From: Corallococcus silvisoli
GTDB taxonomy: Bacteria > Myxococcota > Myxococcia > Myxococcales > Myxococcaceae
Reading direction: 5' to 3'
DNA: 64,000 nt
Assembly: GCF_009909145.1 (NCBI RefSeq)
Contig: NZ_JAAAPJ010000005.1
Span: forward strand, 336,470 to 400,469
Part shown: piece by piece, positions 4,868 to 17,599 of the stretch
How the letters are laid out: each line of letters opens with the position of its first letter
Numbering within the stretch: the stretch's first letter is position 1
Position numbers and translations under genes: made by a program
Notes under the pieces: model-generated
Seen by the model: only the letters and a program-made list of their open reading frames with translations
Told to the model about the DNA's origin: nothing
Database searches by the model: none

Positions 4868-5318
4868 CGAGATGAGCCTCCAGGATTCGGAATGGTGAGC
4901 CTTTGATAACTCACACCCAGAGTCTCAGTTGCTTCACCCTCGATGTCCATCACCGCGCCCCCGCCCTCCCGTTCTTCCGTGGCGGACGCCGCGGCGCGCA
5001 CGTGCGTGCGGTAGCGTTCCGGTGCGGGTGGATCGCCGGCTGGGCAGGGGATGCACTTGGGCACGAAGATGTCACCCAAGACGCGCTCCTTTTTCATCGC
5101 CAATGCGAGAAGCGTCGGGTGCCCCCATCCGCGATAAAAGCCGGCGAGCCAGACTGTATTCTAGTCGATACTCGGCGGGAGCGCGTCCATGAGCAGCCCG
5201 TGTATGAGGCATGCTGCTGGCGGGTCGGTATTGCCCGTCCAGGTTGGTGTTTGGATTGGAAGTCGAGCGCCTGGATTTGAGGGGGAGCCGTTGCGCGCCA
5301 TCCGAGATCGGGTGCTAC

Positions 5319-6671
5319 ATGAAAACCTGGATTCGCTTCCTGGGGAGTCGCGCCACTCAACTCCGGCAGACGGTGCTGGGAGCCCTCCAAGGCTCGGGCC
5401 TCGAGATGGTGTCGCGCCCGGAGGAAGCTCCCCCTGGCCTCGGAGTGATTGTCTTCGATGAAGTGGAAGCGAACACGCTGGAAGCCGTGCGGGACTGCCG
5501 GCTGAGCCCTTCGACACGGGTCCTCGCGGTGGCCACGACGGGCCAGGGACTCGGTGAAGGGGCTTGCTGGCGGCTGCTTCAGGCGGGAGCCTCGGACGTG
5601 CTCGTCTGGGAGGGCGCGCGTGACGCGGCGGCGGAGATCGCCGCACGGCTGGAGCGCTGGCACCAGGTGGAGCGGCTCATCGAGTCGCCCGCCGTGCAAC
5701 GGCGCCTGGTGGGCCGGGCCGCCACCTGGCTCCCGGTGCTGCGCCAGCTCGTGGAGGTGGCCGCGTTCACTGACGCCTCGGTGCTGCTGCTCGGGGAGAG
5801 CGGCACCGGCAAGGAGGAGATGGCCTGTCTCATCCACGAGCTGGACATGCGCCCGGACAAGCGGGAGCTGGTGACGCTGGACTGTACGACGGTGGTGCCG
5901 GAGCTGTCGGGCAGCGAGTTCTTCGGGCATGAGCGGGGCGCCTTCACGGGAGCGACGAACACCCGAGACGGGGCCTTCGCCCTGGCCCATGGCGGGACGC
6001 TGTTCCTGGACGAGGTGGGCGAGCTGCCCCTGGCCCTCCAGGCTCAGTTGCTGCGGGTGGTGCAGGAGCGTCTGTACAAGCGCGTGGGCTCCAACACCTG
6101 GCAGCGGACGGACTTCCGGCTCGTCTGCGCCACCAACCGCGAGCTGTCCCAGCAGGTCGCCCAGGGCGGCTTCCGCCGCGACTTCTTCCACCGCATCCTG
6201 AGCTGGGTGTGCCGGCTCCCGCCCCTGCGCGAGCGACCCGAGGACATCCTCCCGCTGGCCCAGCACTTCCTCCGGTCGATGCGACCCGACATGGCGCTCG
6301 AGCTGGATCCCCACGTGCGGGAGTACCTCCTCAAGCGCAGCTACCCGGGAAACATCCGGGAGCTGCGTCAGCTCATCGGGCGCCTCTGCAAGCGGCACGT
6401 GGGCACCGGGCCCATCACCGTGGGCGACATTCCCCCCGACGAGCTCCCTTCCTCCGAAGGGCTCGGGGACTGGCAGGACGTCTCGTTCGCGCAGGCCATC
6501 CAGCGCGCCCTGTCGCTCGGGGTGGGGCTCAAGGAGATTGGCCGGAGCGCCTCGGACACGGCCATCCGGCTGGCCCTCGCCGAGGAGCAGGGCAACCTCC
6601 AACGCGCCGCCCGGCGGCTGGGCGTCACGGACCGCGCGCTCCAGCTCCGCCGGGCCCAGCGCGACGAATAG
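5319..6671 (+). CDS. Sigma-54-dependent Fis-family transcriptional regulator (NtrC-like) with a degenerate receiver-like N-terminus
   Basis: Walker A GESGTGKE, the GAFTGA signature (GHERGAFTGA), Walker B LFLDEVGEL, an Arg-finger region and a C-terminal Fis-type helix-turn-helix (NLQRAARRLGVTDRALQLR). ATG at 5319 (MKTWIRF) chosen; the ORF-track start at 5211 has no support. Confidence 0.85.
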   Translation: MKTWIRFLGSRATQLRQTVLGALQGSGLEMVSRPEEAPPGLGVIVFDEVEANTLEAVRDCRLSPSTRVLAVATTGQGLGEGACWRLLQAGASDVLVWEGARDAAAEIAARLERWHQVERLIESPAVQRRLVGRAATWLPVLRQLVEVAAFTDASVLLLGESGTGKEEMACLIHELDMRPDKRELVTLDCTTVVPELSGSEFFGHERGAFTGATNTRDGAFALAHGGTLFLDEVGELPLALQAQLLRVVQERLYKRVGSNTWQRTDFRLVCATNRELSQQVAQGGFRRDFFHRILSWVCRLPPLRERPEDILPLAQHFLRSMRPDMALELDPHVREYLLKRSYPGNIRELRQLIGRLCKRHVGTGPITVGDIPPDELPSSEGLGDWQDVSFAQAIQRALSLGVGLKEIGRSASDTAIRLALAEEQGNLQRAARRLGVTDRALQLRRAQRDE

Positions 6672-6685
6672 CCGGAGTCATCGCC

Positions 6686-7522
6686 TCAGCATCCGCCGCC
6701 TCGGAGCGCATCGGGGGTCCAGGGGTCTCGCGGCTCTTCCTCCACCGAGGGGGCCGGGCCCTTCCAGGCAGACCTCCGCCCCAAGGGCCTTGGGCGGCAC
6801 CGGCCCATCAATCGCAGCAGGTTGCCCCCCAACACGAGCTGCCGGTCCTTCGGAGACAGCTCCAGCGCGAGCACCTTGGCCAGCTCCACCCCCGGGTGCA
6901 GCCACGGGCCATCCGAGCCGAAGAGCAGCTTGTGTGCCCCGGCCCGCTCCACCGCCTCCTCCAGCAGGTCGAAGCGGCGCACCCCAGCGGTGTCGGCGTG
7001 GACGTTGGGCAGGCGCGCCAGGAGGTCCAACAGCGCGCGCTGCGCTCGCCAGTCGTCCGCGAAGCTGCCCAGGTGCGGGATGATGAAGCTCACCTCCGGG
7101 TACTCGGTGGCGATCAACTCCACACCGGAGACTTCTCCCATCACGTCGTAGAGGATGGGCAGCGCGAAGGCCCGGGCCACCTCGCAGATCTCACGGGAGA
7201 TGCGCGCGTCGTAGCGGTGGACCTTGATGCCCCGGAAGCCGTAGCGCCGCACGGCCTCCTGGACCCGCTCGAAGACGCGCCCGCGGTCTCTCACGGCATG
7301 CACGAAGGCGAAGCCGTAGAAGCGCTCCGGGTGGCGTTTCACGAGGCGGGCCACCTGGCGATTCGCCGTGGCGTAGTCGGAGTGGAACGCGGCCAGCAGC
7401 ACCGTGCGGGAGATGCCCGCGGCGGACGCGCGCCGCAGGTAGTCCTCCAGCGGCGCGGAGGTGTCCCAGGGGCCGGTGAGCCCGTCGCCCTTCCCGGCAT
7501 GGCAATGGCAGTCGATGATCAT
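6686..7522 (-). CDS. Amidohydrolase-2-type metal-dependent TIM-barrel hydrolase; last gene of the six-gene operon
   Basis: Starts MIIDCHCHAG (the IDxHxH metal-binding motif), with later His/Asp ligands (IIPHLG, FGSDGPW). Lies 7 nt downstream of the GIY-YIG gene stop. The ORF-track extension to 7657 is rejected. Confidence 0.7.
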   Translation of the reverse strand: MIIDCHCHAGKGDGLTGPWDTSAPLEDYLRRASAAGISRTVLLAAFHSDYATANRQVARLVKRHPERFYGFAFVHAVRDRGRVFERVQEAVRRYGFRGIKVHRYDARISREICEVARAFALPILYDVMGEVSGVELIATEYPEVSFIIPHLGSFADDWRAQRALLDLLARLPNVHADTAGVRRFDLLEEAVERAGAHKLLFGSDGPWLHPGVELAKVLALELSPKDRQLVLGGNLLRLMGRCRPRPLGRRSAWKGPAPSVEEEPRDPWTPDALRGGGC

Positions 7523-7529
7523 CGTCGCG

Positions 7530-8516
7530 TCATCGGCGCTCGAACAGCTCGTAGAGCGCCTTGTCGGGGAGCGAGAGCGCGCGGTTGGCGATGCCAGGCG
7601 CCTTGGCGGCCCGGACGCCCCATGGATTCGGCGGGAGCAAGCCCTGGATGGAGACACCTCCTCTCACGCGGAACTGCCGGATGGAGCTCAGGTTGCGAAG
7701 GCGGCCCGCGGGGACGGCTCCAGAGAGCAGGAGCGCGCGGATCAGCGCATGCTCCACCGCCCTGCGAGCCTGTCGGGTGTTGGGCTGAATCGTCCCGAAC
7801 CAGACCGTGATGGGCTTGGGCAGCAGCCCCCCCTTCTGGGTGAGCCCCATCTGGTAGAGGCTCAGCAGGCGTCCTCGCCAGCGCCCCTGGAAGCTGTCCG
7901 TCTCGCCCACGTAGAGGGGAAGCCCCTCCTCCTCCACGACGTACAAGCCACCTCCGGCGGGAAGCGCGGAGAACGGGTGGCGATCAATCTTCCGCACCGA
8001 CCAGGAGAGGACCTTCGCGGTGACGGGGCCCCGCTGTGCCTCGAGCTCCTGCGACTCCGCGGGAGGGGGCCCGTCCTGCCCGGGCGGAGCGTCCGAGGGT
8101 TCCTCGGGAGGCGCCACATCCGGCGGCGGCTGCGCCGCGGCCACCGGCTCGACGCTGTCGGGAGGGGGCTCGTTCAGGGCCGGCTGGTAGAGCGGGTAGC
8201 CGTACGGCCCTCCGCCGTAGACCACCCAGGGGCGGCCCCTCGGCCACCGCCGCCCCGGCCTCGGCCCCTGCCCCTGCCCCTGCCCCTGCCCGGGGCTCCG
8301 CCACGCACGGGCCGGTCTCGAACCCGAACGCCAGACCTGCGCCCGGGGGACGCCCATCATCCCGCGTCCGACCCCGAACCGCCTCGCGCCGGGCTGGAGT
8401 GCACGAGCGCGGCGCGCAGGTGGCGCACGGAAGGACCGCGCGAAGTGGCCCTCCTCTTCGCCTTCCCACTCGGACTCCAACGCGTCTTCGCTCTCGTTCT
8501 CGTACCACTCATTCAT
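7530..8516 (-). CDS. GIY-YIG nuclease-motif protein with a long acidic/Arg-Gly-Pro-rich disordered N-terminal region
   Basis: GLYVVEEEGLPLYVGETDSFQGRWRGRL...RRAVEHALI resembles I-TevI GVYQIK..KVYVGSAKDFEKRWKRH and the Arg/Glu-His of GIY-YIG. Its ATG overlaps the upstream gene's stop (ATGAATGA). Confidence 0.6.
   Translation of the reverse strand: MNEWYENESEDALESEWEGEEEGHFARSFRAPPARRARALQPGARRFGVGRGMMGVPRAQVWRSGSRPARAWRSPGQGQGQGQGPRPGRRWPRGRPWVVYGGGPYGYPLYQPALNEPPPDSVEPVAAAQPPPDVAPPEEPSDAPPGQDGPPPAESQELEAQRGPVTAKVLSWSVRKIDRHPFSALPAGGGLYVVEEEGLPLYVGETDSFQGRWRGRLLSLYQMGLTQKGGLLPKPITVWFGTIQPNTRQARRAVEHALIRALLLSGAVPAGRLRNLSSIRQFRVRGGVSIQGLLPPNPWGVRAAKAPGIANRALSLPDKALYELFERR
8265..8291. repeat. 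(CCCCTG)4 hexanucleotide microsatellite encoding GQGQGQGQG in the GIY-YIG protein's disordered region
   Basis: Direct reading of 8265-8291. Confidence 0.8.
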
Positions 8517-9594
8517 GACGTGTCCTCCGCTGCTGCCTTCCGTCGACGGCTTCCACCAGCGCCTCCACTGCGTGAGTCAGCTCCTCCGCGCCGTGCCGCG
8601 CGGTGAGGATGAAGCTCACCGACACCTCCGGACCGCAGCGCGAGCGCTGGAGCACGGTCCGGATGCCACGCCGGTGCAGCCGCTCGTGGACCGCTCGCGG
8701 GTTCACCCCGCGAGGAAGCTGGATCCGCTGCACCGGGAACCGCCCGCCCACCGAGGCCAACCCCGACCGCCGCAGCCGCCCCCGGAAGTGCGCCACCCGC
8801 AGCGCCAGCGCCTCCCGGAGCGCGTCGCCTTTCCGGCGATTGATGGCCACCGCGTGCTCGGCGGCATGGAGATCCGCCACCGAAGGTGGACTGCAATGCA
8901 TCCGCGTCTCGCTGCGCTCCTCGTACCTGGCCACCACCCGCGCGCCGCCGGCCATCAGCGCCATCGGCACACCCAAGGCCTTCGCCATCGAGCCGCACCA
9001 CAGGACATCTGGCCCGTGGATGCCGTACCAGCGCAGCGAACCCCCTCCGCCGGCTCCGTATGGCAGGCCGGGCCCCGGCATGCCGAACACTCCCAAGGCT
9101 TGGGTGTCGTCCAGGATGAGCAGGCCCCCATGGGCCCGGACCACCTCCAGGTACGCGTCGAGCGGCGCCAGCGCGCCGCAGCCCGGACACCAACCGTCGC
9201 AGACCACCACCGGCCGGAGCCCCTGGCGCGGCGCCCGTGCCAGGAGCCTCGCCAGGGCCTCGGGCGAATGATGGGGAAAGCTCCTCACGGGTCCGCCGCG
9301 CGCCACCACCCGCTCGAACCCCCACCGCACCACCGGGTAGCTGCCTTCATCCCAGTAGAGGGCCACGGGGCGCCCCGCGAGCGCTCCGAACACGTCCCAG
9401 AACAGGTGCAGCGTGGAGCGGGCGAACAGCCCCCGCTCGCAGCCCACCAGCTCCGCCAGGGCGCGTGACGTCTCTTGCGTTCCGGGGGGCTCCTCGAGGA
9501 TGGCCGGAGTGCCCAGGGTGAGCCGCTCCCACGGCGCGAGCGATCCGCTGGAGTGCTCCAGGCCCAGGTAGAGCGCGGAGGTGAAGTCGAGCAC
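8509..9594 (-). CDS. PLP-dependent aminotransferase class I/II fold enzyme, alpha-oxoamine synthase family (AONS/KBL/SPT-like), N-terminally short
   Basis: LDFTSALYLGL (AONS LDFxSNDYLGL), DDTQALGVFG (DExHxxG) and the PLP-lysine motif GSMAKALG. At 361 aa it is shorter than typical AONS and lacks the first ~40 residues. Confidence 0.75.
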   Translation of the reverse strand: MLDFTSALYLGLEHSSGSLAPWERLTLGTPAILEEPPGTQETSRALAELVGCERGLFARSTLHLFWDVFGALAGRPVALYWDEGSYPVVRWGFERVVARGGPVRSFPHHSPEALARLLARAPRQGLRPVVVCDGWCPGCGALAPLDAYLEVVRAHGGLLILDDTQALGVFGMPGPGLPYGAGGGGSLRWYGIHGPDVLWCGSMAKALGVPMALMAGGARVVARYEERSETRMHCSPPSVADLHAAEHAVAINRRKGDALREALALRVAHFRGRLRRSGLASVGGRFPVQRIQLPRGVNPRAVHERLHRRGIRTVLQRSRCGPEVSVSFILTARHGAEELTHAVEALVEAVDGRQQRRTRHE

Positions 9595-9609
9595 CGGCGC
9601 CGTCCCCCG

Positions 9610-11466
9610 TCACCGCCTCCGCTGCAGGGCCAGCCGGTTGCGCAGGTGCACCGAGGGGGACACGTAGCGCTCCGCCAGGCGCTGCTGGTCGGTGATGTCG
9701 ACCGCGAGGTCCACGCCGGTGACGGCCCGGTACGCGTGGATGTAGCCCTGGATCTCCGGCCGCCAGTAGCGCGCCCAGTTGGCGGCCTGGTTCGGGTCGT
9801 TCGTGATGCTCCACGCGCCGTAGCGCACGGCCAGGAGCACCTGCTCGCCGTAGACGGCGAGGTCGTGGAAGTGCACCACGCTGACGTCCGTCCACCCCAG
9901 GAGCGACTTCATCGCATCCACCCGGTCCATCCACGGCTCCGGGTAGGGCACCATCACCCGCCCGCCGAGGAACTCGCGCATCTCCGGGCGCGACAGCAGC
10001 CACTGCTGCATCAGCATCTCCTGGCGCGCGGTGGAGGGCATGTCTCCGAACTGGTTATGGGCCCCCTGCGCCAGCAGGTAGTGCGTCTCCTTGAGCGAGT
10101 TGAGCACCGGGAAGCCGTCCGACACCACGGTGGTGTCATCGTCCTGCCGGAAGAACTGCACGCATTGGTGGAGCAGGTTGTGGAAGGACTCGAGGAACTT
10201 CGAGCGCCGATCCGCGGTGCGCATCCCGGACACGGCCTTGCCGTGCAGCGTGAAGCCATATTCGTGGTCGTACTCGTGGGCGCGGCGCACGACGCTCAGC
10301 CGGTGCTGCTCGTCCTGGAGGTAGCCCCACAACACGTTGTTGAGGGGCCGCAGCGGATCGATCTCCATGTTCGCCAGCGGATCCCGGTCCCCGGGCCCGC
10401 GCACGTTCTGGAAGCGATTGCTGATGTAGTTCATCGCCTGGACCAGCATTCCCTCCTCGTGCCAGTAGTTCCAGATGAGCTCCAGGAAGGTGGGGTAGCC
10501 CAGCTTCTGCTGGAGGATGCCGTAGCAAGCGGCGTAGTCGTCCTCCGGAATGTTCCGAGGCGCGATGACCGGCACGTCGGGGAGCTTGTTGCGGATGATC
10601 GCCAGGTAGGGGAGCGCGACATCGGCGCTTCCGTTCACATCCTCCAGGTAGTGCTTCCACACGACCTCGAAGTCGAAATCGCGAGGAAGCGTCTGGCCGA
10701 GGCGACCGCCCTCCACGCGCGCGTCCAGCTTGTCCAGCAGCTCCGTGAAGTCCACCAGCACGCCCGTGCGCTCCAGCATGAAGGCCTCGGTCAGGGCCTT
10801 CAGCTTCCGGTAGGCATCCACGCCAGGGAATGGCAGCCGGAGCTTGGGCTTGCGGATCGGGGTCGGCCTGCCCGGGCCCGGCAGGCCCGTGCCCGGGTCC
10901 GTCATGTGGTCGGGCGGGCAGAGGTGTGCGTCGATGAACCGGCTGTATTGATCGAAGGAGAGCCAATCGGTGGTCTTGCGGATGACCATCCAGAGGATGA
11001 CGTCGGTCGTCAGCGGATGAAGGGTGCGCTGCAGCGCCACGGGGAGGACAGGCATGCGTCCAGCCGCGCCGAAGGAGTTGAGCTCGTTGAGCGCTTCGCG
11101 CACCACCTCCCGGACGTTCCTGTCGCCCTCTCCCGGGAGGAGGGTCAGCGACTGTTCGGCTTCCCAGGTGAACGCGGGCCTGGTGGAGCCCGCCCCTTCG
11201 AACTCCTCGAGGATGACCTTGGCCTTGAGGACGCCCGCGCGCCTCGAGCTGGGAATCGTCCAGGTCGCGTGGCCATTGAGCTCCTGCCTGTCCGCGCTGG
11301 ACTTGGAGACCGGGGGTTCGACGCTGCCGGCCTCCACGGACCATCTGTAGACCCGATGCGTGAGCTTCGGGTTCACGTGGACGGGGGACGCCGACAGTTC
11401 GACGGTGGCACCCGAAGCGCTCGAGGTGACGGTGGTGGGTGAGAGAGTGAGTGTGACGCCAGCCAT
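9610..11466 (-). CDS. Hypothetical protein (618 aa), no recognisable domain; possible N-terminal beta-sandwich
   Basis: Long ORF with GC3-rich codon usage. Strong Shine-Dalgarno GGAGG 8 nt upstream of ATG at 11466. A TTG at 11481 sits 2 nt after the upstream stop. Confidence 0.6.
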   Translation of the reverse strand: MAGVTLTLSPTTVTSSASGATVELSASPVHVNPKLTHRVYRWSVEAGSVEPPVSKSSADRQELNGHATWTIPSSRRAGVLKAKVILEEFEGAGSTRPAFTWEAEQSLTLLPGEGDRNVREVVREALNELNSFGAAGRMPVLPVALQRTLHPLTTDVILWMVIRKTTDWLSFDQYSRFIDAHLCPPDHMTDPGTGLPGPGRPTPIRKPKLRLPFPGVDAYRKLKALTEAFMLERTGVLVDFTELLDKLDARVEGGRLGQTLPRDFDFEVVWKHYLEDVNGSADVALPYLAIIRNKLPDVPVIAPRNIPEDDYAACYGILQQKLGYPTFLELIWNYWHEEGMLVQAMNYISNRFQNVRGPGDRDPLANMEIDPLRPLNNVLWGYLQDEQHRLSVVRRAHEYDHEYGFTLHGKAVSGMRTADRRSKFLESFHNLLHQCVQFFRQDDDTTVVSDGFPVLNSLKETHYLLAQGAHNQFGDMPSTARQEMLMQQWLLSRPEMREFLGGRVMVPYPEPWMDRVDAMKSLLGWTDVSVVHFHDLAVYGEQVLLAVRYGAWSITNDPNQAANWARYWRPEIQGYIHAYRAVTGVDLAVDITDQQRLAERYVSPSVHLRNRLALQRRR

Positions 11467-11483
11467 GATTCCATCCTCCAACG

Positions 11484-12827
11484 CTAGGTGACGACGTTCC
11501 GCGGCAACGCGGGAGCCCGGAGCACCGACGCCAGGGTCCGCGACTTCGAGAGTGACGCGCAGGTCTCGGACGCATCGAGCGTGCTGCGCAGGGCCCAGTA
11601 CTTGAGGAGCTCGGCCAGGGCCTTGCTCTCCTCCTCGGGAGTGATGGCCCCGTCGGCCCTGGCCTGCCCGATGACGGCGAACACCAGCGAGGGCGGCGAC
11701 TCACGAATGCGGGAGCGCCGGGCGCGCCACTCCCGGTACAGCTCGGAGAGCCGGTCTGGCTGACGCTCCCGCGTCTTCATGACCTCCACCAGCGTGCGTC
11801 CACGAAGGGACTCCGGCCGGTGCTCCACCAGGAGCCGCGCGATGCGCGGCAGGCTCGCCTCGAGCGCGCCGAGCACCCGGCGGTGCTGCTCGGACAGTCC
11901 GTCGATGGGGTAGAACGCCTTCCACAGTCGCGCCAGCCGCGCCCACTGCGGATGCGGATACAGCAGTCCGCCCAGCGCGCTGCTCAGCTTGACGCGGATC
12001 CACGGGATGGGATGGGGGTCGTCCATGTTCAGCCGGAACACGAACGGCCGCGGCAGGCTCACCACCCCCATCAGCCCCACCGTGGCGGTCACCCCCACGC
12101 GAGCCACCGACCAGAAATCCGCGACGACCTCCGAGATCCACCGCTCCCACAGGCCCCAGACCAGCGCGTCCTCGGGCCCTTCACGCGGCACGTCGCGCAG
12201 GGCCACGCGGAGCGAGGCCACCAGGTCCAGCAGCGCCGCCCCCTGGTGCCCCACCTCGTGGAAGAGGGAGGACGCGAGGCTGCTGCCGATCATCCGCTCG
12301 CGGGGGACGCGGATGATGGCCACCGGGTTCGCCCCGCCGCCGGGCAGACGCGTGCGCGCCCGGCGGATGGCCGCTCCGGGGCCGCGAGCCAGGTAGCAGA
12401 TGACGGGCGGCGCCTCGTAGTACCCCGGCAGCTCCAGCGCGTTCTTGGAGAGCACGTCCAGCCCCGCCAGCCAGACGCCGTTGTCCGCCTCGCTGCGCTG
12501 GCTCATGGCCTCGCTGAAGATGTCGAACTGCGACAGCACCACGTTGAAGCGCAGCCGCAGGAAGGTGAAGCGCCGCTGCGCCTCGGCGGGGGCCGCGTGT
12601 CGGCCCCAGGGGCCCTCCAACCACGCGAGGTACTGGTGGATCTGCGTCCGTAGCTCACGGCGCCCCTTGACCAGGTAGCTCTCCAACGCCGCCTGCGCTT
12701 CGACGGAGAGCGTGGCCGCTGGGACCATCGTCTCCGACATGGCGAAGGACTTGATGCGCTCGAGCCGGGTGAGCAGCGCGCGGGCCTCCTGTGACAGCAT
12801 CCAGGAGGCGAAGGAGCCGGAGGACAT
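11484..12827 (-). CDS. Hypothetical protein (447 aa) with an HExxH zinc-metallopeptidase-like motif (SLFHEVGHQ)
   Basis: Long ORF, typical codon usage, with HEVGH in a hydrophobic context. No signal peptide; family not recognised. Confidence 0.6.
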   Translation of the reverse strand: MSSGSFASWMLSQEARALLTRLERIKSFAMSETMVPAATLSVEAQAALESYLVKGRRELRTQIHQYLAWLEGPWGRHAAPAEAQRRFTFLRLRFNVVLSQFDIFSEAMSQRSEADNGVWLAGLDVLSKNALELPGYYEAPPVICYLARGPGAAIRRARTRLPGGGANPVAIIRVPRERMIGSSLASSLFHEVGHQGAALLDLVASLRVALRDVPREGPEDALVWGLWERWISEVVADFWSVARVGVTATVGLMGVVSLPRPFVFRLNMDDPHPIPWIRVKLSSALGGLLYPHPQWARLARLWKAFYPIDGLSEQHRRVLGALEASLPRIARLLVEHRPESLRGRTLVEVMKTRERQPDRLSELYREWRARRSRIRESPPSLVFAVIGQARADGAITPEEESKALAELLKYWALRSTLDASETCASLSKSRTLASVLRAPALPRNVVT

Positions 12828-12833
12828 GGTGGC

Positions 12834-13463
12834 TCAGACCCCGTAGAGGATGATCTTGTTGCCCTTGCGCACCCAGCGGCCACTGCGGCCACCGGTGCCC
12901 GCGGCGTGCGGCATCTGGGCGGCGAAGCCAGGGGCGAACTTCTGGATGGCCTGGTGGACGGCGGCGCCAGCCACCTGCTGGGGCGAAGCATTGTCGGGCG
13001 AGTTGAGGGCCGTCTTGGAGGCGTCCGAGGCGAGTCGGACAATCTGCCGGGCCACCTCGAACTCGCGGTCCTCCTGGCTCAGGCCCTCCAGTTCGAGCCC
13101 GAACGCCTGGCCCGCCATGGAGGCCAGCTTGCCACCGACGGCGCCGCCCACGCCGGGGACCACGAGGTTGCCGAGCGCGCTGCCCACCATCGGCAGGGCC
13201 TGCCTGGCCAGTCCCTTGAGCATGCCCCCGAGCTGCTTGCCCAGCGGAGACTTCACGACCTTGCCGACGGCGCTGCCCACCTTCTTGATGATGTTGCCGA
13301 GGAACTGATCCAGCTCCTGCTCGTTGCTGACCTCCAGCAGCTCCGAGGCGAGCTCGTTCAGCTCGTTCTCGTTGAAGACCTCGCCCCACTCCGACTCGGC
13401 GTTGAACTCGAACTCGAACGACTCCCCCTCCAGTTCCTGGTAGGTGCGATCCACGTCATGCAT
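12834..13463 (-). CDS. Hypothetical small protein (209 aa): acidic N-terminus, Gly/Lys-rich amphipathic central segment, basic C-terminus; first gene of the operon
   Basis: ATG at 13463 (MHDVD) preceded by GAGGAA. The ORF-track extension to 13712 is rejected. Low-complexity composition is visible directly in the sequence. Confidence 0.55.
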   Translation of the reverse strand: MHDVDRTYQELEGESFEFEFNAESEWGEVFNENELNELASELLEVSNEQELDQFLGNIIKKVGSAVGKVVKSPLGKQLGGMLKGLARQALPMVGSALGNLVVPGVGGAVGGKLASMAGQAFGLELEGLSQEDREFEVARQIVRLASDASKTALNSPDNASPQQVAGAAVHQAIQKFAPGFAAQMPHAAGTGGRSGRWVRKGNKIILYGV

Positions 13464-13520
13464 GGTCAGTTCCTCGTGTGATGGGGCCGGCTTCGTGGCC
13501 GCGGGTTCGGACCGGGCATA

Positions 13521-13536
13521 AGCAGCGGCTGTGCCA
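13521..13536 (-). promoter_or_regulatory. Candidate sigma-54 (-24/-12) promoter TGGCAC-agccg-CTGCT upstream of the six-gene operon
   Basis: Reverse complement of 13521-13536 reads TGGCACagccgCTGCT. GG and GC are separated by the canonical 10 nt. It lies ~58-73 nt upstream of the ATG at 13463. Confidence 0.4.
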
Positions 13537-13766
13537 ACCCCGCCGAGGGTCGCTCCTGCTCTGGGAGTCAGGGCGCGGGAGCGAAGCGCGCTTCGGCGGC
13601 GCCGGCCGAACGGGAGATTCGGCGAAGCAGGCTTCGGCGCCCCGTCATGGCCCCGTGGGCTCCGGGCGAGTCCCCCCCCTGGCGAGGGCATTCGTCCCCT
13701 CGCCGTCGCCATTCGCGGGGCCGTCGGCTAGCGTTCGGCCCTCTCCGCGGAACAAGAGGGGGGCCC

Positions 13767-16040
13767 ATGCGCGTCGTACCGTCCATCCTGGAATCCGTCA
13801 CCGTTCACGCCGAAGGCGCGCTGTGCACCCGCGCGCTCGTGCTCTCCCCCGAGGACGGGCACCTGCCCGAACAGGTCCGCGTCGACGGCCTGCCCCTGGC
13901 CCTGCGAACAGCGACCCTGCGCGCCCGCGTGGTGGAGGGCCCCACCGGGCTCCTCGTCCGCGACCTGCGGCCCACGTTCGACGTGCGGCTGCCCGCCGAA
14001 TCGGACCTGCCCGCGGAGCTGCACGCGGCCGAAGCGGCGGAGGCCGCGCTGTCGGACGTGCTGGGCCGGCTGGAGCGGGTGCGCGCGGAGCTGGAGACCC
14101 TTCAGGGACTGGCGCCCTCCTTCCCGCCCCAGCGCAAGGGCCAGCTCCCGCGCGAGGCGCCCCTCGCCGCGATGCTGGCGCTGACGGGCTTCGTGGACGC
14201 GGAGCTGACGGCGCTGCATGCCCAGCGGCTGGAGCTGGAGCGGCAGTACCGCGACGCCACCCAAGAGCTGGAGCTGCGCCGCCGCCGCGTCCAGGAGCTG
14301 TCCTCCGCGCGAAGCGTGGACCGGGCCCGGCTCTTCCGCGCGGCCCTCCTCACGCTGTCCGGCCCCATCGCCGCGAACGCGGAGGCGCGCCTGGTGTTGG
14401 AGTACGCCGTGGCGGGCGCGCGATGGGTGCCCACCTACGACCTGCGCCTGCCGCGCACGCTGGAGGAAGGCACGCTGCGCATGCGTGCCGCCGTCATCCA
14501 GCGGACCGGCGAGGACTGGAAGGGGGTCCGGCTGTCGGTCTCCACCGCGAGCCTGGAGCGGCGCGCGGTGGTGCCGGAGCTGAAGTCGCTGCGCATCGGC
14601 CGCAGCCAGCCGGCGCCCGTGCGCTCGGGATGGCGTGAGCCCGCGCCGGGCCTGGACGAGCTGTTCGCGGGCTACGACGCCATGACGGTGCCGCCCCCTC
14701 TCGCGATGCCCGAGCCTCTTCCGCCCCCTCCGATGGACGAGCTGGACGCGGATGAGGACTCGTTCGGGAGCGTGGTGGCCTTCGAGGAGTCCTTGAAGGA
14801 GAAGTCGCCGAAGGCGATGTCGTCCTCGTATGGGGGCGCGCCGGGCGCTCCGCCCATGGCGCCCCCTTCCGTCTCCCGGCCCGCGCCGCCGCCCATGCCG
14901 GCTCCCAAGGCCGCGGCCCCCGCGCTGGGCGGAGTCCGCCCGTCGGCGGCCCCGAGCCGGAACCTCAGCGACGGCGGAGACCTCAGCCGGAGTTTCCGGC
15001 GGGATGCCCCGGGCCGGGGCGGCGGCGGGATGAGCAAGAAGCGCGCGGCCGAGGAGGAGAGCCTCGATGATGCCCCGATGATGGACCTGTCATCGGACCT
15101 CTCGGACGGCGAGGGCGGCGGCGGGGAGTCGCGGCGCACGAGGGCCCTGGAGCCCGCGGACAGCCTGTTCGACTACGACTCGCTGACGCTGGCCCCTCCG
15201 GGCGCTCCAGCCGAGCGCGGCCGGCTGACGCCCCGGCCGGCGCTCATCACGCAGGCGAGGCTGTCCGTCACTTCCGTGAGTCTCCAGGTCGAAGTGGTGC
15301 GCCTGGAGGCCCAGGCCTTCGTCACCGCCGAGTCCGTGAACACCGTGCCGCCGCCCACGTGGGCGGTGGCGCCGCGCGACTCCGCCCGGCACTTCGACGC
15401 GCGCTTCGACGCGGAGGCGGTCGCGGACGTGCCCGCCGACGGCGCGTGGCACACGGTGCCCATGCTGACGGTGCCCCTGGAGTTCCGCGCCGAATACGTC
15501 TGCGTGCCTTCGGTGGAGCCGCGGGTCTTCCGCACGGTGCGCCTGGACAATCGGACACCGCACCCGCTGCTCGCGGGGCCCGTGGACGTGACGCTCGGGG
15601 ATGAGTTCCTGATGACCTCTCCGCTGCCCACGCTCGGGCCCGGCGAGACGCAGCGGCTGGGATTGGGCGTGGAGGAAGCGATCCAGGTGGCGCGCAACAC
15701 GCGCTTCGAGGAAGCGACGGGCGGCATGTTCGGCAACAACACCGTCCTCACGCACCACGTCTCCGTGGAGGTGACCAACCACCTCGCGCGTCCCGCGACG
15801 CTCGCCATCTCCGAGCGCATCGGCGCGGTGCCCGAGTCCCAGAAGGACCTCAAGGTCGAGGAGGCGGAGGTCATCCCGCCCTGGCAGAAGCCCACGCCCC
15901 TGCCCGGAGAGGTCGCGGTGGAGGGCGAGCGGGTCTGGCGCATGAGCATGCCCGCCGGAGAGAAGCGTTCGATGAAGGCGACATGGGTCGTGAAGCTGCC
16001 CGGCAACAAGATGCTGTACGGCGGGAACCGGAGGACATGA
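13767..16040 (+). CDS. DUF4139/MuiA-like (myxobacterial paralogous family) protein with a Pro/Ala-rich central linker
   Basis: Long ORF with ATG at 13767 (MRVVPSILESVTV). Shares architecture and short motifs (WVPTYDLRLP compared with AWRPAYRAAL) with the next gene. Family assigned from memory only. Confidence 0.6.
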   Translation: MRVVPSILESVTVHAEGALCTRALVLSPEDGHLPEQVRVDGLPLALRTATLRARVVEGPTGLLVRDLRPTFDVRLPAESDLPAELHAAEAAEAALSDVLGRLERVRAELETLQGLAPSFPPQRKGQLPREAPLAAMLALTGFVDAELTALHAQRLELERQYRDATQELELRRRRVQELSSARSVDRARLFRAALLTLSGPIAANAEARLVLEYAVAGARWVPTYDLRLPRTLEEGTLRMRAAVIQRTGEDWKGVRLSVSTASLERRAVVPELKSLRIGRSQPAPVRSGWREPAPGLDELFAGYDAMTVPPPLAMPEPLPPPPMDELDADEDSFGSVVAFEESLKEKSPKAMSSSYGGAPGAPPMAPPSVSRPAPPPMPAPKAAAPALGGVRPSAAPSRNLSDGGDLSRSFRRDAPGRGGGGMSKKRAAEEESLDDAPMMDLSSDLSDGEGGGGESRRTRALEPADSLFDYDSLTLAPPGAPAERGRLTPRPALITQARLSVTSVSLQVEVVRLEAQAFVTAESVNTVPPPTWAVAPRDSARHFDARFDAEAVADVPADGAWHTVPMLTVPLEFRAEYVCVPSVEPRVFRTVRLDNRTPHPLLAGPVDVTLGDEFLMTSPLPTLGPGETQRLGLGVEEAIQVARNTRFEEATGGMFGNNTVLTHHVSVEVTNHLARPATLAISERIGAVPESQKDLKVEEAEVIPPWQKPTPLPGEVAVEGERVWRMSMPAGEKRSMKATWVVKLPGNKMLYGGNRRT

Positions 16041-17599
16041 TGCGCACTTCCATTCTGTTGCCCCTGGTCAAGGTGACGGTCCTGGAGGACCGGGCCCTCA
16101 TCGAGCGCACCGGCGAGGTGACGCTGCCTCCGGGCCCGTGCCGCCTCGCGGTGGACGGCCTGCCGGCGGTGGCCGTGGACCGCTCGCTTCAAGCGAAGCT
16201 CTCAGGTGGCGTGGTGACCCAGGCCAGCCTGCGCCGCTCGATGCGCGCGGTGCTCCCGGAGGCCCTGCGCGAACACGCCACGGAGCTGGCCCGCCGCGCC
16301 TTCGAGCGCGAGCAGGAGCTGGAGCGCGCGCAGGCGGAGGTCGGTCGCCTGGAGACGCGGCGCGACCTGCTGGAGGCCGCGCGGACCGAGGTCTTCCGCG
16401 CCATCAGCGAGCGCACCGGCGCGGGCGAGGCGGATCCGACGCGCTGGAAGGAACAGCTCGAAACGCTGCGCAAGGAGCAGGCCGCGACGGACGACACGCT
16501 CTGGCAGGCCCGGCGCTCCGCGGCGCGCCTCCAACGCCAGCATGAGCAGGAGACCCGCGAGGTGCTGGCGCGCACGGCTCCCGCCGAGCCCACGGTGGAC
16601 GTGCGCGCGGAGCTGGACGTGAGCCACGCGACGGGCGGGCCGGTGACGTTGACGCTGACGTACCTGGTGCCCTGCGCCGCATGGCGGCCCGCGTATCGCG
16701 CGGCCCTGAGCCTCGCGGACGAGGGCTCGACGGTGGCGTTGGAGTGCGAGGCCGTCGTCTGGCAGAACACGGGCGAGGCCTGGAAGGACGTGACGCTGGC
16801 CTTCTCCACGGCGCGCCCCACGCTGGGTGCCACGCCCCCCAGGCTCGAGGAGGACTGGCTGTCCCTGCGGGACAAGACAGCGCGAGAGAAGCAGGTGGTG
16901 GAGGTCTCCGTCCGCGAGGAGTCCATCCAGACGACCGGCGAGGCCGGGACCTCGAAGGCCGCGGATGCGCTGCCCGGCATGGACGACGGCGGAGCGCCGG
17001 TGACGCTGTCCACGCCCCACAAGGTCACGGTGCCGTCGGACGGCGAGGCGCACCGCGTGGCGCTGTTCGCGTTCACGGCGCCCGCGACGTCGGAGCTGGT
17101 GGCCTGCCCGGAGCAGTCGCCGCTGGTGCACCGGGTGGCGCGGTTCGCCAACACGGGGCCGACGGTGCTGATGGCCGGGCCGGTGGACCTGGTGCGCTCG
17201 AAGGGCTACGTGGGCCGCGCGCAGCTCAAGTTCGCGGGCCGGGGCGAGCGCGTGAAGCTGGGCTTCGGCAGCGAGGACTCGCTGCGCGTGTCACGGCAGG
17301 CGGAGTCGAGCGAGGAGGTCGCGCGCATCACCAGCCGGCGCACGAACACGGAGCGGGTGAAGCTGTTCGTCTCCAACATGGGGGCGATGCCGGCGAACCT
17401 GGTGGTGGAGGAGCGCATGCCGGTGTCCGAGGTGGAGGCCGTGGAGGTGGCGCTGCTCAAGGACGCCACGAAGCCCGCGCCCACGAAGGTGAGCGACGAC
17501 GGCATCGTGCGCTTCGAGTTGAACGTCCCGCCGCGCTCCCGGCAGACGGTGTCCTTCGGCTTCACGGTGGCCCGCTCCGGGAAGGTCTCGGGCCTGTAG
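16037..17599 (+). CDS. DUF4139/MuiA-like paralog, translationally coupled to the upstream gene (ATGA overlap)
   Basis: ATG at 16037 overlaps TGA at 16038-16040. Coiled-coil N-terminal half and beta-rich C-terminal half parallel the upstream paralog. Confidence 0.6.
   Translation: MMRTSILLPLVKVTVLEDRALIERTGEVTLPPGPCRLAVDGLPAVAVDRSLQAKLSGGVVTQASLRRSMRAVLPEALREHATELARRAFEREQELERAQAEVGRLETRRDLLEAARTEVFRAISERTGAGEADPTRWKEQLETLRKEQAATDDTLWQARRSAARLQRQHEQETREVLARTAPAEPTVDVRAELDVSHATGGPVTLTLTYLVPCAAWRPAYRAALSLADEGSTVALECEAVVWQNTGEAWKDVTLAFSTARPTLGATPPRLEEDWLSLRDKTAREKQVVEVSVREESIQTTGEAGTSKAADALPGMDDGGAPVTLSTPHKVTVPSDGEAHRVALFAFTAPATSELVACPEQSPLVHRVARFANTGPTVLMAGPVDLVRSKGYVGRAQLKFAGRGERVKLGFGSEDSLRVSRQAESSEEVARITSRRTNTERVKLFVSNMGAMPANLVVEERMPVSEVEAVEVALLKDATKPAPTKVSDDGIVRFELNVPPRSRQTVSFGFTVARSGKVSGL

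Follow-up and report, generated by a model that had tools for sequence, protein, structure and literature searches.

A sigma-54-controlled gene cassette of Corallococcus silvisoli with an unannotated core and exchangeable cargo

The operon and its sigma-54 control

A 64,000-nucleotide (nt) stretch of the Corallococcus silvisoli genome (contig NZ_JAAAPJ010000005.1, positions 336,470 to 400,469), here called the window, contains six minus-strand open reading frames (ORFs), g1 to g6, that span 6686–13463 and form a tightly packed operon (Table 1). Their coding signal is strong, with a GC content of 0.86–0.93 at third compared with 0.43–0.57 at second codon positions in a genome of 70% GC, and by composition all six look like real genes. 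Scanning one genome per species yielded 79 loci with relatives in about eight phyla, and the operon is the C. silvisoli copy of a widespread, horizontally mobile and self-contained cassette.

An earlier note on this DNA had described six packed minus-strand genes. This arrangement is borne out, with gaps of +6 nt between g1 and g2, +15 nt between g3 and g4 and +7 nt between g5 and g6, and with an overlap of g4 and g5 (−8 nt, ATGAATGA) that was confirmed by direct reading. Of the spacings given there, the +2 nt between g2 and g3 does not stand: from the ATG start of g3 (618 amino acids, aa), which is also the start of the 100% identical C. silvisoli protein at NCBI, the gap is 17 nt, and it shrinks to 2 nt only with a TTG start at 11481 (623 aa). 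Neither a sigma-70-like promoter nor an intrinsic terminator was found when looked for inside the six-gene cluster, and as both flanking genes lie on the plus strand, the boundaries of the cluster are set. A signal peptide or transmembrane helix was found in no cassette protein of any phylum; all six proteins here stay below 1.6 in their 19-residue Kyte–Doolittle maximum.

Table 1. Features of the operon and its control elements, as positions in the window
Feature	Position	Strand	Description
g1	12834..13463	-	209 aa; proposed pro-protein; in 66/66 loci
g2	11484..12827	-	447 aa HExxH protein, H190-E-V-G-H194; putative zincin-like processing enzyme
g3	9610..11466	-	618 aa; immunoglobulin (Ig)-like N-terminal beta-sandwich and conserved all-alpha domain
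g4	8509..9594	-	361 aa, GTG start; divergent pyridoxal phosphate (PLP) enzyme of the alpha-oxoamine-synthase superfamily; optional cassette part
g5	7530..8516	-	328 aa; variable-slot cargo with predicted GIY-YIG nuclease domain
g6	6686..7522	-	278 aa; Amidohydro_2 TIM-barrel metal hydrolase
sigma-54 enhancer-binding protein gene	5211..6671	+	AAA+ with GAFTGA, Fis-type helix-turn-helix, N-terminal sensor domain
sigma-54 (-24/-12) promoter	13521..13536	-	TGGCAC-N5-CTGCT, upstream of g1
proximal predicted upstream activator site (UAS)	13582..13595	-	palindrome CGAAGCGCGCTTCG
distal predicted UAS	13623..13636	-	palindrome CGAAGC-N2-GCTTCG

The promoter upstream of g1 scores 19.4 of 20.2. Across the related loci, −24/−12 sites scoring at least 18 precede the first g1 in 69% of cases, compared with 4% of random windows. 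Exact matches to CGAAG-N4-CTTCG occur only twice in the whole 64-kb window, 41 nt apart and both before g1, the distal one ~115 nt ahead of the transcription start, which is predicted at ~13510. The same tandem arrangement (~41 nt apart) precedes g1 in 50 of 69 related loci, from Acidobacteriota to Kribbella, and in 40 of 1299 (3%) random windows. In Myxococcus stipitatus (L085) and Myxococcus sp. CA033 (L087), the proximal palindrome CGAAGCGCGCTTCG is identical and lies at the same distance from g1.

The gene for the dedicated enhancer-binding protein, called the activator in the following, is convergent with g6, the two stop codons being 14 nt apart (6672–6685). An orthologue adjoins the cassette in 51 of 57 loci, in 45 of them convergent and directly after g6. 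The orthologous GAFTGA activators align over their whole length, from about residue 37 of the C. silvisoli ORF onward and including the N-terminal sensor domain. As the first 36 codons (5211–5318) have no counterpart in them, the true activator start is probably M37 at 5319. The sensor domain had no significant match in the PDB; since it aligns among the orthologues, the sensed signal is probably common to all host species. Promoter, GAFTGA activator and upstream sites, the elements of a sigma-54-dependent operon, are all present at the level of sequence. These parts, which best define the system, had been left out of the earlier note, whose end coordinate 13536 is the first base of the −24 element. 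No terminator-like structure was detected in 6672–6685, and in some loci (L003) the g6 and activator genes overlap by a few bases. Read-through past g6 would give RNA antisense to the activator gene, a possible candidate for a feedback loop.

In 18 loci, which all come from Actinomycetota or Chloroflexota, g1 is directly preceded by a gene that carries the RpoN box RRTV(A/T/S)KYR and lies ~4.5 kb upstream of g3. These are loci from Kribbella and relatives (L060–L062, L064, L066, L068, L070, L074), from Streptomyces (L032, L036, L044) and seven more (L027, L054, L077, L081, L083, L019, L037). Five of the genes were checked with Pfam, and all five encode a complete sigma-54 with AID, CBD and DBD domains. 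Good promoters of the −24/−12 type follow the cassette-borne sigma-54 gene, one of them, in Streptomyces, being TGGCACGCGACTTGCA at a distance of 46 nt from g1. A 2025 survey found Actinomycetota to be effectively without RpoN (PMC12316311). The cassette thus travels with its own sigma factor in these two phyla. This points to a need for very tight control of expression, as lethal products would require, and we read it as a sign that the cassette depends on expression that is governed by the activator and very low at the basal level.

Conservation of the cassette and its protein families

Hosts of the cassette belong to Myxococcota, Acidobacteriota, Chloroflexota, Actinomycetota (Streptomyces, Kribbella), Bacteroidota, Gammaproteobacteria, Methylomirabilota and others, and g3 also occurs on megaplasmids of Ensifer, Rhizobium and Paraburkholderia. 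In all 66 of 66 loci, g1, often as two paralogues, and g2 are found directly upstream of g3. Of 57 loci, 49 have g6 downstream and 39 have g4; g5 occurs in just 2 of 79. The annotated example loci keep the same gene order. The conserved core is g1, g2 and g3, usually with g6 and often with g4. Between g4 (or g3) and g6 lies a variable slot, the content of which differs from locus to locus and is called cargo here; Bacteroidota include cassettes without any cargo. All-against-all clustering of the ORFs in the 10-kb flanks of the 79 loci produced no transporter or immunity family. The sole extra family, found in 22 loci, sits at the position of the sigma-54 gene.

The earlier note had treated the six genes as one unit and knew of no system that combines a GIY-YIG nuclease fold with a PLP enzyme, a putative metallopeptidase and a small amphipathic protein. 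Comparing gene neighbourhoods across phyla, as it had proposed, supports the co-occurrence of the g1–g2–g3 core and not that of g5. As g5 belongs to the variable slot, its pairing with the PLP enzyme is not defining. The individual assignments of the note agree with our searches, namely the HExxH motif in g2, no recognisable domain in g3, an N-terminally short alpha-oxoamine-synthase-family enzyme in g4, GIY-YIG in g5 and amidohydrolase-2 in g6. Its view that the genes belong to no described system also stands, both for well-described pathways and for defence catalogues: searches of Pfam, NCBIfam, PADLOC, PHROGs and the PDB, by sequence and by fold, did not place the operon in any such system, and only g4 and g6 were recognised by the first four. 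Literature searches of open-access papers and bioRxiv turned up no description of the cassette, although one elsewhere is possible. On present evidence it is a new kind of system, with a putative function.

Some loci depart from the common layout. In Pendulispora rubella (L086, 1–15923), the cassette is present twice within 16 kb, in opposite orientations, and the second copy differs in gene order (g3, g4, g6, followed by an OmpA-type cargo). In M. stipitatus (L085:10317–10835), a 172-aa protein without Pfam match takes the g6 position, and gene calling gave no Amidohydro_2 gene in the locus, which may mean that this species has a decaying or rearranged cassette.

The core proteins g2 and g3 had no match in Pfam, NCBIfam or PADLOC, and PDB profile searches gave nothing meaningful. 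Family-wide Pfam scans of both (E ≤ 1) returned only the variable Ig- or PKD-type N-terminal domains of g3. With more than 5700 relatives, g2 is ~64% identical even in other phyla, and H190, E191, H194 and E233 are invariant in 31 sequences. Its AlphaFold2 model, with a predicted local distance difference test score (pLDDT) of 75, places the HExxH helix after a small sheet; there was no significant fold match, and neither sequence nor fold resembles a known peptidase family. For g3, more than 3800 relatives are ~57% identical even in other phyla. Its residues 1–110 are confidently modelled as an Ig-like beta-sandwich, and homologues swap this N-terminal domain for PKD or CarboxypepD_reg types. 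Ig/PKD-type domains are typical of extracytoplasmic or phage-released proteins. The all-alpha domain of ~480 aa is highly conserved and has an AlphaFold2 pLDDT below 50. A phage origin of the cassette was considered and rejected, as tblastn with g3 against 50,697 phage records gave no match. Some g3 homologues (P0012, P0054) are named ‘8-amino-7-oxononanoate synthase’ in public databases. A g3–g4 fusion, which this name could indicate, was also rejected: P0012 consists of g3 and a long low-complexity linker, without such a domain, and the name appears to be an annotation error transferred from the neighbouring gene.

Of the two further enzymes, g4 matches Aminotran_1_2 (1e-9, 38.5 bits with a cut-off of 19.7). 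Its best NCBIfam matches are weak and come from the BioF/KBL/SPT group; all 11 lie far below their cut-offs, with bioF scoring highest (59.9 bits vs. 426). The alignment begins at BioF residue 42, hence the short N-terminus. The Schiff-base lysine K205 is kept in at least 95% of 46 homologues, and Asp161/162 is conserved. Alpha-oxoamine synthases have two active-site histidines, the ring-stacking one of an N-H-A motif and the one of D-D-A-H-G. Compared with the 8-amino-7-oxononanoate synthase structures 5jay and 5vnx, g4 reads S-Y-P for N-H-A and DDTQA for DDAHG, placing Tyr and Gln at the positions of BioF His133 and His207. The second enzyme, g6, matches Amidohydro_2 (PF04909; 3e-23, 83.6 bits with a cut-off of 26.4) and has a median identity of 64% across phyla. 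Residues D4, H6, H8, H102, H150 and D204 are invariant in 19 sequences and would correspond to the amidohydrolase metal ligands (HxH of strand 1, His, His and Asp of strand 8). Its closest relatives in the PDB are hydrolases that have not been characterised and decarboxylases of the ACMSD type.

The alpha-oxoamine-synthase superfamily makes precursors of biotin, sphingolipids, haem and autoinducers. With g4 in this superfamily and g6 apparently an active amidohydrolase, the two could carry out ordinary small-molecule biosynthesis, yielding a cofactor, lipid or signal, with the other genes packed next to them by chance. We consider this very improbable. The distance of g4 from bioF (60 vs. 426 bits) and the absence of both active-site histidines speak against it, as does the fact that g4 is optional, in contrast to the universal g1, g2 and g3. 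Conservation across phyla extends to synteny, promoter and activator, and the conserved synteny already argues strongly against such biosynthesis with chance neighbours.

The small protein g1 starts with an invariant MHD(I/V)DRT, followed by an acidic FEFE leader that gives residues 1–50 a net charge of −16. Residues 51–125 form a Lys/Gly-rich amphipathic zone with repeated small-xxx-small motifs. Also conserved are a helix, ELAxELLEVxxExELDxFLG, a further helical segment, LELEGLSxEDxEFEVAR, and the C-terminal motif GRWVRKGNKIILYGV, with the family form GRW(V/I)RRGxxIxLxG. A basic motif like this C-terminus occurs near the N-terminus of several cargo proteins, in g5 in degenerate form (RRWPRGRPWVVYGG), and a minority of slot proteins share GRW-R-G. 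The g1 core of L053 forms a fusion with PG_binding_1. The 19-residue hydropathy maximum of g1 is 1.36. Neither Pfam, NCBIfam nor PADLOC gave a match, PDB profiles gave no meaningful one, and PHROGs returned only weak, low-complexity matches to Gly-rich parts of tape-measure proteins.

The invariant ends of g1 enclose variable low-complexity parts, and g1 paralogues are paired in many loci. One may thus think of a maturation pathway in the manner of ribosomally synthesised and post-translationally modified peptides (RiPPs), in which g1, as one or two paralogues, would be modified by g2, g3, g4 and g6 to give, for example, an antimicrobial or structural protein, with the slot genes as accessories. 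The catalytic-type residues that are kept (HExxH...E in g2, the PLP lysine in g4, HxH/H/H/D in g6) and the far higher conservation of the enzymes than of the cargo would fit. However, Pfam and NCBIfam searches with the six proteins found no class-defining RiPP enzyme or RiPP recognition element, and a transporter was not found either. With more than 200 aa and conservation along most of its length, g1 is unlike a leader–core peptide, and a third of the cassettes lack g4. On balance, such a pathway is quite unlikely.

The variable slot

In C. silvisoli the slot is occupied by g5. Its residues 1–25 are acidic (net −11), residues 26–100 are Arg-rich (net +18), and a Pro/Ala/Glu linker leads to the GIY-YIG domain at ~165–328. 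A HMMER scan with the C-terminal 169 residues gave 82 cluster representatives, 63 of which were aligned. While g5 itself has no match to PF01541 at E ≤ 0.1, nor any in NCBIfam or PADLOC, 22 of the 63 relatives match PF01541 (best 2.7e-5), and the family profile matches the UvrC GIY-YIG domain 1yd5 at 3e-5 and I-TevI at 0.036. The GIY-YIG hairpin can be read in g5 as Y192, Y202-V-G204 and then R212, in alignment with 1yd5. Among the 63 relatives, these positions are conserved in 57 (Y192), 56 (Y202), 62 (G204) and 58 (R212), the metal-binding E255 in 56 and the downstream N275 in 57. With this catalytic set present and ~90% conserved, g5 is very likely an active GIY-YIG nuclease. Between two Corallococcus species, g5 is 44% identical, compared with 87% for g2 and g6; such fast divergence is typical of effector genes. 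There is no immunity gene beside g5, and the gene that follows, at 7 nt, is already the g6 of the general cassette; the same holds in Myxococcus sp. CA033.

Pfam searches with 42 slot proteins found mostly domains directed at the cell wall: PG_binding_1 in 15, OmpA in 6, PG_binding_3 in 5, trypsin-like in 4, Peptidase_M74 in 3, and Amidase_2, CHAP, Rv2525c-like, DUF2272 and Extensin_C in one each. The first 45 residues are acidic in 21 of the 42, many of them with aromatic motifs as in the g1 leader (FEFE, EWE, NFEAEPF, EWYE), and an Arg/Pro-rich stretch comes after the leader in many. For the protease cargo, the nearest PDB relative is the glutamyl endopeptidase 1p3c. Directly after its leader (end marked |) we read E|IVGAVDDR, EE|IIGADTS and FE|IIPPDQR, which would correspond to the mature-type N-terminus of Glu-specific endopeptidases. 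Its position right behind the leader suggests that the leader behaves like a propeptide that needs exact removal.

Several side observations concern these proteins. A few of the 63 g5-domain relatives also match PG_binding_1 (3), Peptidase_M74 (2) or trypsin (1). In these the GIY-YIG-type domain is apparently joined to wall-directed ones, an unusual combination for a nuclease; likely carriers are the long multi-domain proteins P0256, P0263, P0293, P0295, P0303, P0313 and P0320. Near the N-terminus of many slot proteins from Bacteroidota and Gammaproteobacteria, a C-x-C-x-x-C-(R/K) motif replaces the acidic leader or stands beside it (for example L042:12653-13663, L043:12496-13452, L029:12514-13578, L053:12554-14467 and L047:13555-14301, as well as P0293, P0295 and P0258). 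The motifs RRPW(I/V)(F/Y) and EWxG were considered as a twin-arginine or type VII secretion signal. This was rejected by eye on position and context, since the motif lies ~90 residues from the N-terminus, lacks a hydrophobic h-region and is present in diderms too.

Because peptidoglycan-binding and -trimming domains dominate the cargo, the cassette could also serve the producer in remodelling its own wall, be it during development, in forming cysts or spores, when changing shape or under envelope stress, and be no weapon at all. Many host lineages have complex life cycles, and in the literature sigma-54 is tied to control of the cell exterior (PMC3162934). Still, this is decidedly improbable. 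A cell's own wall enzymes normally carry export signals, of which there are none here, and a GIY-YIG nuclease as alternative cargo does not fit. Moreover, the hosts include Thiocapsa, Nitrospira and Methylomirabilis, lineages not known for such differentiation.

A nuclease without adjoining immunity gene, the tight sigma-54 gating, the mobile and patchy distribution and the exchange of nuclease, protease and lytic effector domains, as in many defence systems, together point in another direction, that of abortive infection or programmed suicide. The activator would then sense infection or damage, and the producer would be killed from inside by nuclease, protease, wall hydrolases and membrane damage, with no extracellular role. 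PADLOC-DB v2, however, gave zero matches for all six proteins (E ≤ 0.1), and the cassette neighbourhoods are no defence islands. PG-binding-only cargo, Arg/Pro-rich segments and Ig-like domains fit purely intracellular killing poorly, and four highly conserved enzymes would be left unexplained. We hence regard suicide defence as improbable.

A possible pro-protein cassette

The reading that we tentatively prefer, and rate as possible though somewhat short of probable, is that of a tightly gated pro-protein cassette, in which a membrane-active g1 and swappable lytic or nuclease cargo are matured by enzymes and bring about lysis and/or the killing of neighbours. Some signal would activate the enhancer-binding protein and fire the otherwise silent sigma-54 promoter. 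The products would be pro-proteins, with acidic, aromatic N-terminal leaders masking the cationic segments of g1 and cargo. In this scheme g1 would be a Lys/Gly-rich, glycine-zipper-like amphipathic protein; the cargo would be the GIY-YIG nuclease with its Arg-rich segment in C. silvisoli, and amidases, M74 endopeptidases, lysozyme-like enzymes, zymogens resembling Glu-specific proteases or PG-binding proteins elsewhere. The conserved soluble enzymes would mature these pro-proteins, g2 probably in the role of leader peptidase, while g3, g4 and g6 would modify them or act as scaffolds. Once matured, g1 might permeabilise membranes, so that the cargo could reach the cell wall or DNA, with lysis of the producer and/or killing of neighbours as the outcome. 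Such a scheme would make sense of the strict gating and the types of cargo, of the Ig-like domain and of the lack of both signals and immunity genes. The earlier note had proposed a toxin module or, alternatively, a precursor with peptidase and modifying enzymes; both are viable, and both may be partly true.

Several points weigh against the pro-protein cassette. The role of g3 is left unexplained, its conserved domain being modelled at low confidence, and so are the 60–75% identity of g6 across phyla, the task of the PLP enzyme and the chemistry of g3, g4 and g6 in general. A transmembrane segment is missing from g1, which can therefore be compared to a holin by analogy only. Part of the cargo just binds peptidoglycan (OmpA, PG_binding) and is not obviously lytic, and cassettes free of cargo occur in Bacteroidota. 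An export route, if there is one, is not accounted for. More far-reaching, and in our view doubtful, is the idea of a so far unrecognised weapon or lysis machine shared by many phyla, in which three enzyme families of unknown fold would process leader-tagged pro-proteins, a glycine-zipper membrane-active protein and swappable wall hydrolases or nucleases, for release with no dedicated membrane translocon. This machine would depend on sigma-54 gating so strongly that it takes its own sigma-54 and activator along into Actinomycetota and Chloroflexota.

In its logic the cassette would resemble bacteriocin-plus-lysis operons, holin–endolysin cassettes and polymorphic toxins, although it is built from unrelated parts. 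A defining feature of each is missing, be it the immunity gene, the transmembrane holin, the phage context, the link to secretion or homology. With colicin and pyocin operons it would share cytoplasmic toxins without signal peptides, tight repression of lethal or near-lethal expression, nuclease cargo with a long disordered N-terminal region and killing domains swapped as modules. In contrast to these, it shows no homology to colicins, pyocins or lysis proteins, is controlled by sigma-54 and an enhancer-binding protein instead of LexA/SOS, has no immunity gene beside its nuclease, contains three to four conserved enzymes without counterpart and is found in monoderm and diderm phyla alike. Like holin–endolysin cassettes, related loci encode endolysin architectures without export signal (Amidase_2 with PG_binding_1) beside a protein that looks membrane-active. 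Here, however, g1 lacks the transmembrane helix of a holin, phage genes are not nearby, g3 has no phage match, and the cargo in C. silvisoli is a nuclease and no lysin. As in polymorphic toxins, one conserved type of leader is joined to diverse C-terminal domains and the cargo evolves fast. Unlike them, the cassette has neither cognate immunity genes nor a link to T5, T6, T7, Rhs, MuF or another known secretion route, and its leader is short and acidic, with no known trafficking domain.

Two further comparisons concern maturation and control. In the staphylococcal cascade, the metalloprotease aureolysin activates the zymogen of the Glu-specific V8 protease. The cassette would parallel this where cargo related to Glu-specific endopeptidases, with a propeptide needing an exact cut, is encoded alongside an HExxH protein; nevertheless, g2 is unrelated to thermolysin-type enzymes and the cassette proteins have no signal peptides. 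In the Psp and Rtc stress operons, too, a dedicated enhancer-binding protein controls a single adjacent operon through one sigma-54 promoter, but their structural genes are unrelated, and the cassette brings its own sigma-54 gene into phyla without one.

The families of g2 and g3 have thousands of members each in public genomes and metagenomes, all unannotated, and g1, which accompanies them in every related locus examined, is likewise ‘dark matter’. Once worked out, the function of the core would annotate thousands of genes together. The cassette also explains isolated sigma-54 genes in Actinomycetota, a phylum treated in the literature as RpoN-less. Its sigma-54, activator and promoter make up a compact orthogonal switch, apparently functional even in phyla that have no native sigma-54. 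Should the lytic or toxin function hold true, the cassette would naturally supply peptidoglycan hydrolases and nucleases that are self-masked and carry polycation tags, a design at present introduced into enzyme antibiotics by manual engineering.

Next to the operon and divergent from it, the window contains genes for two paralogous DUF4140/DUF4139 proteins (797 and 538 aa) on the plus strand. They are absent from the genes called upstream of g1 in L001–L004 and L085–L087 and form no conserved family in the clustering of the flanks. The two ORFs, at 13647–16040 and 15983–17599, overlap one another by ~58 nt.

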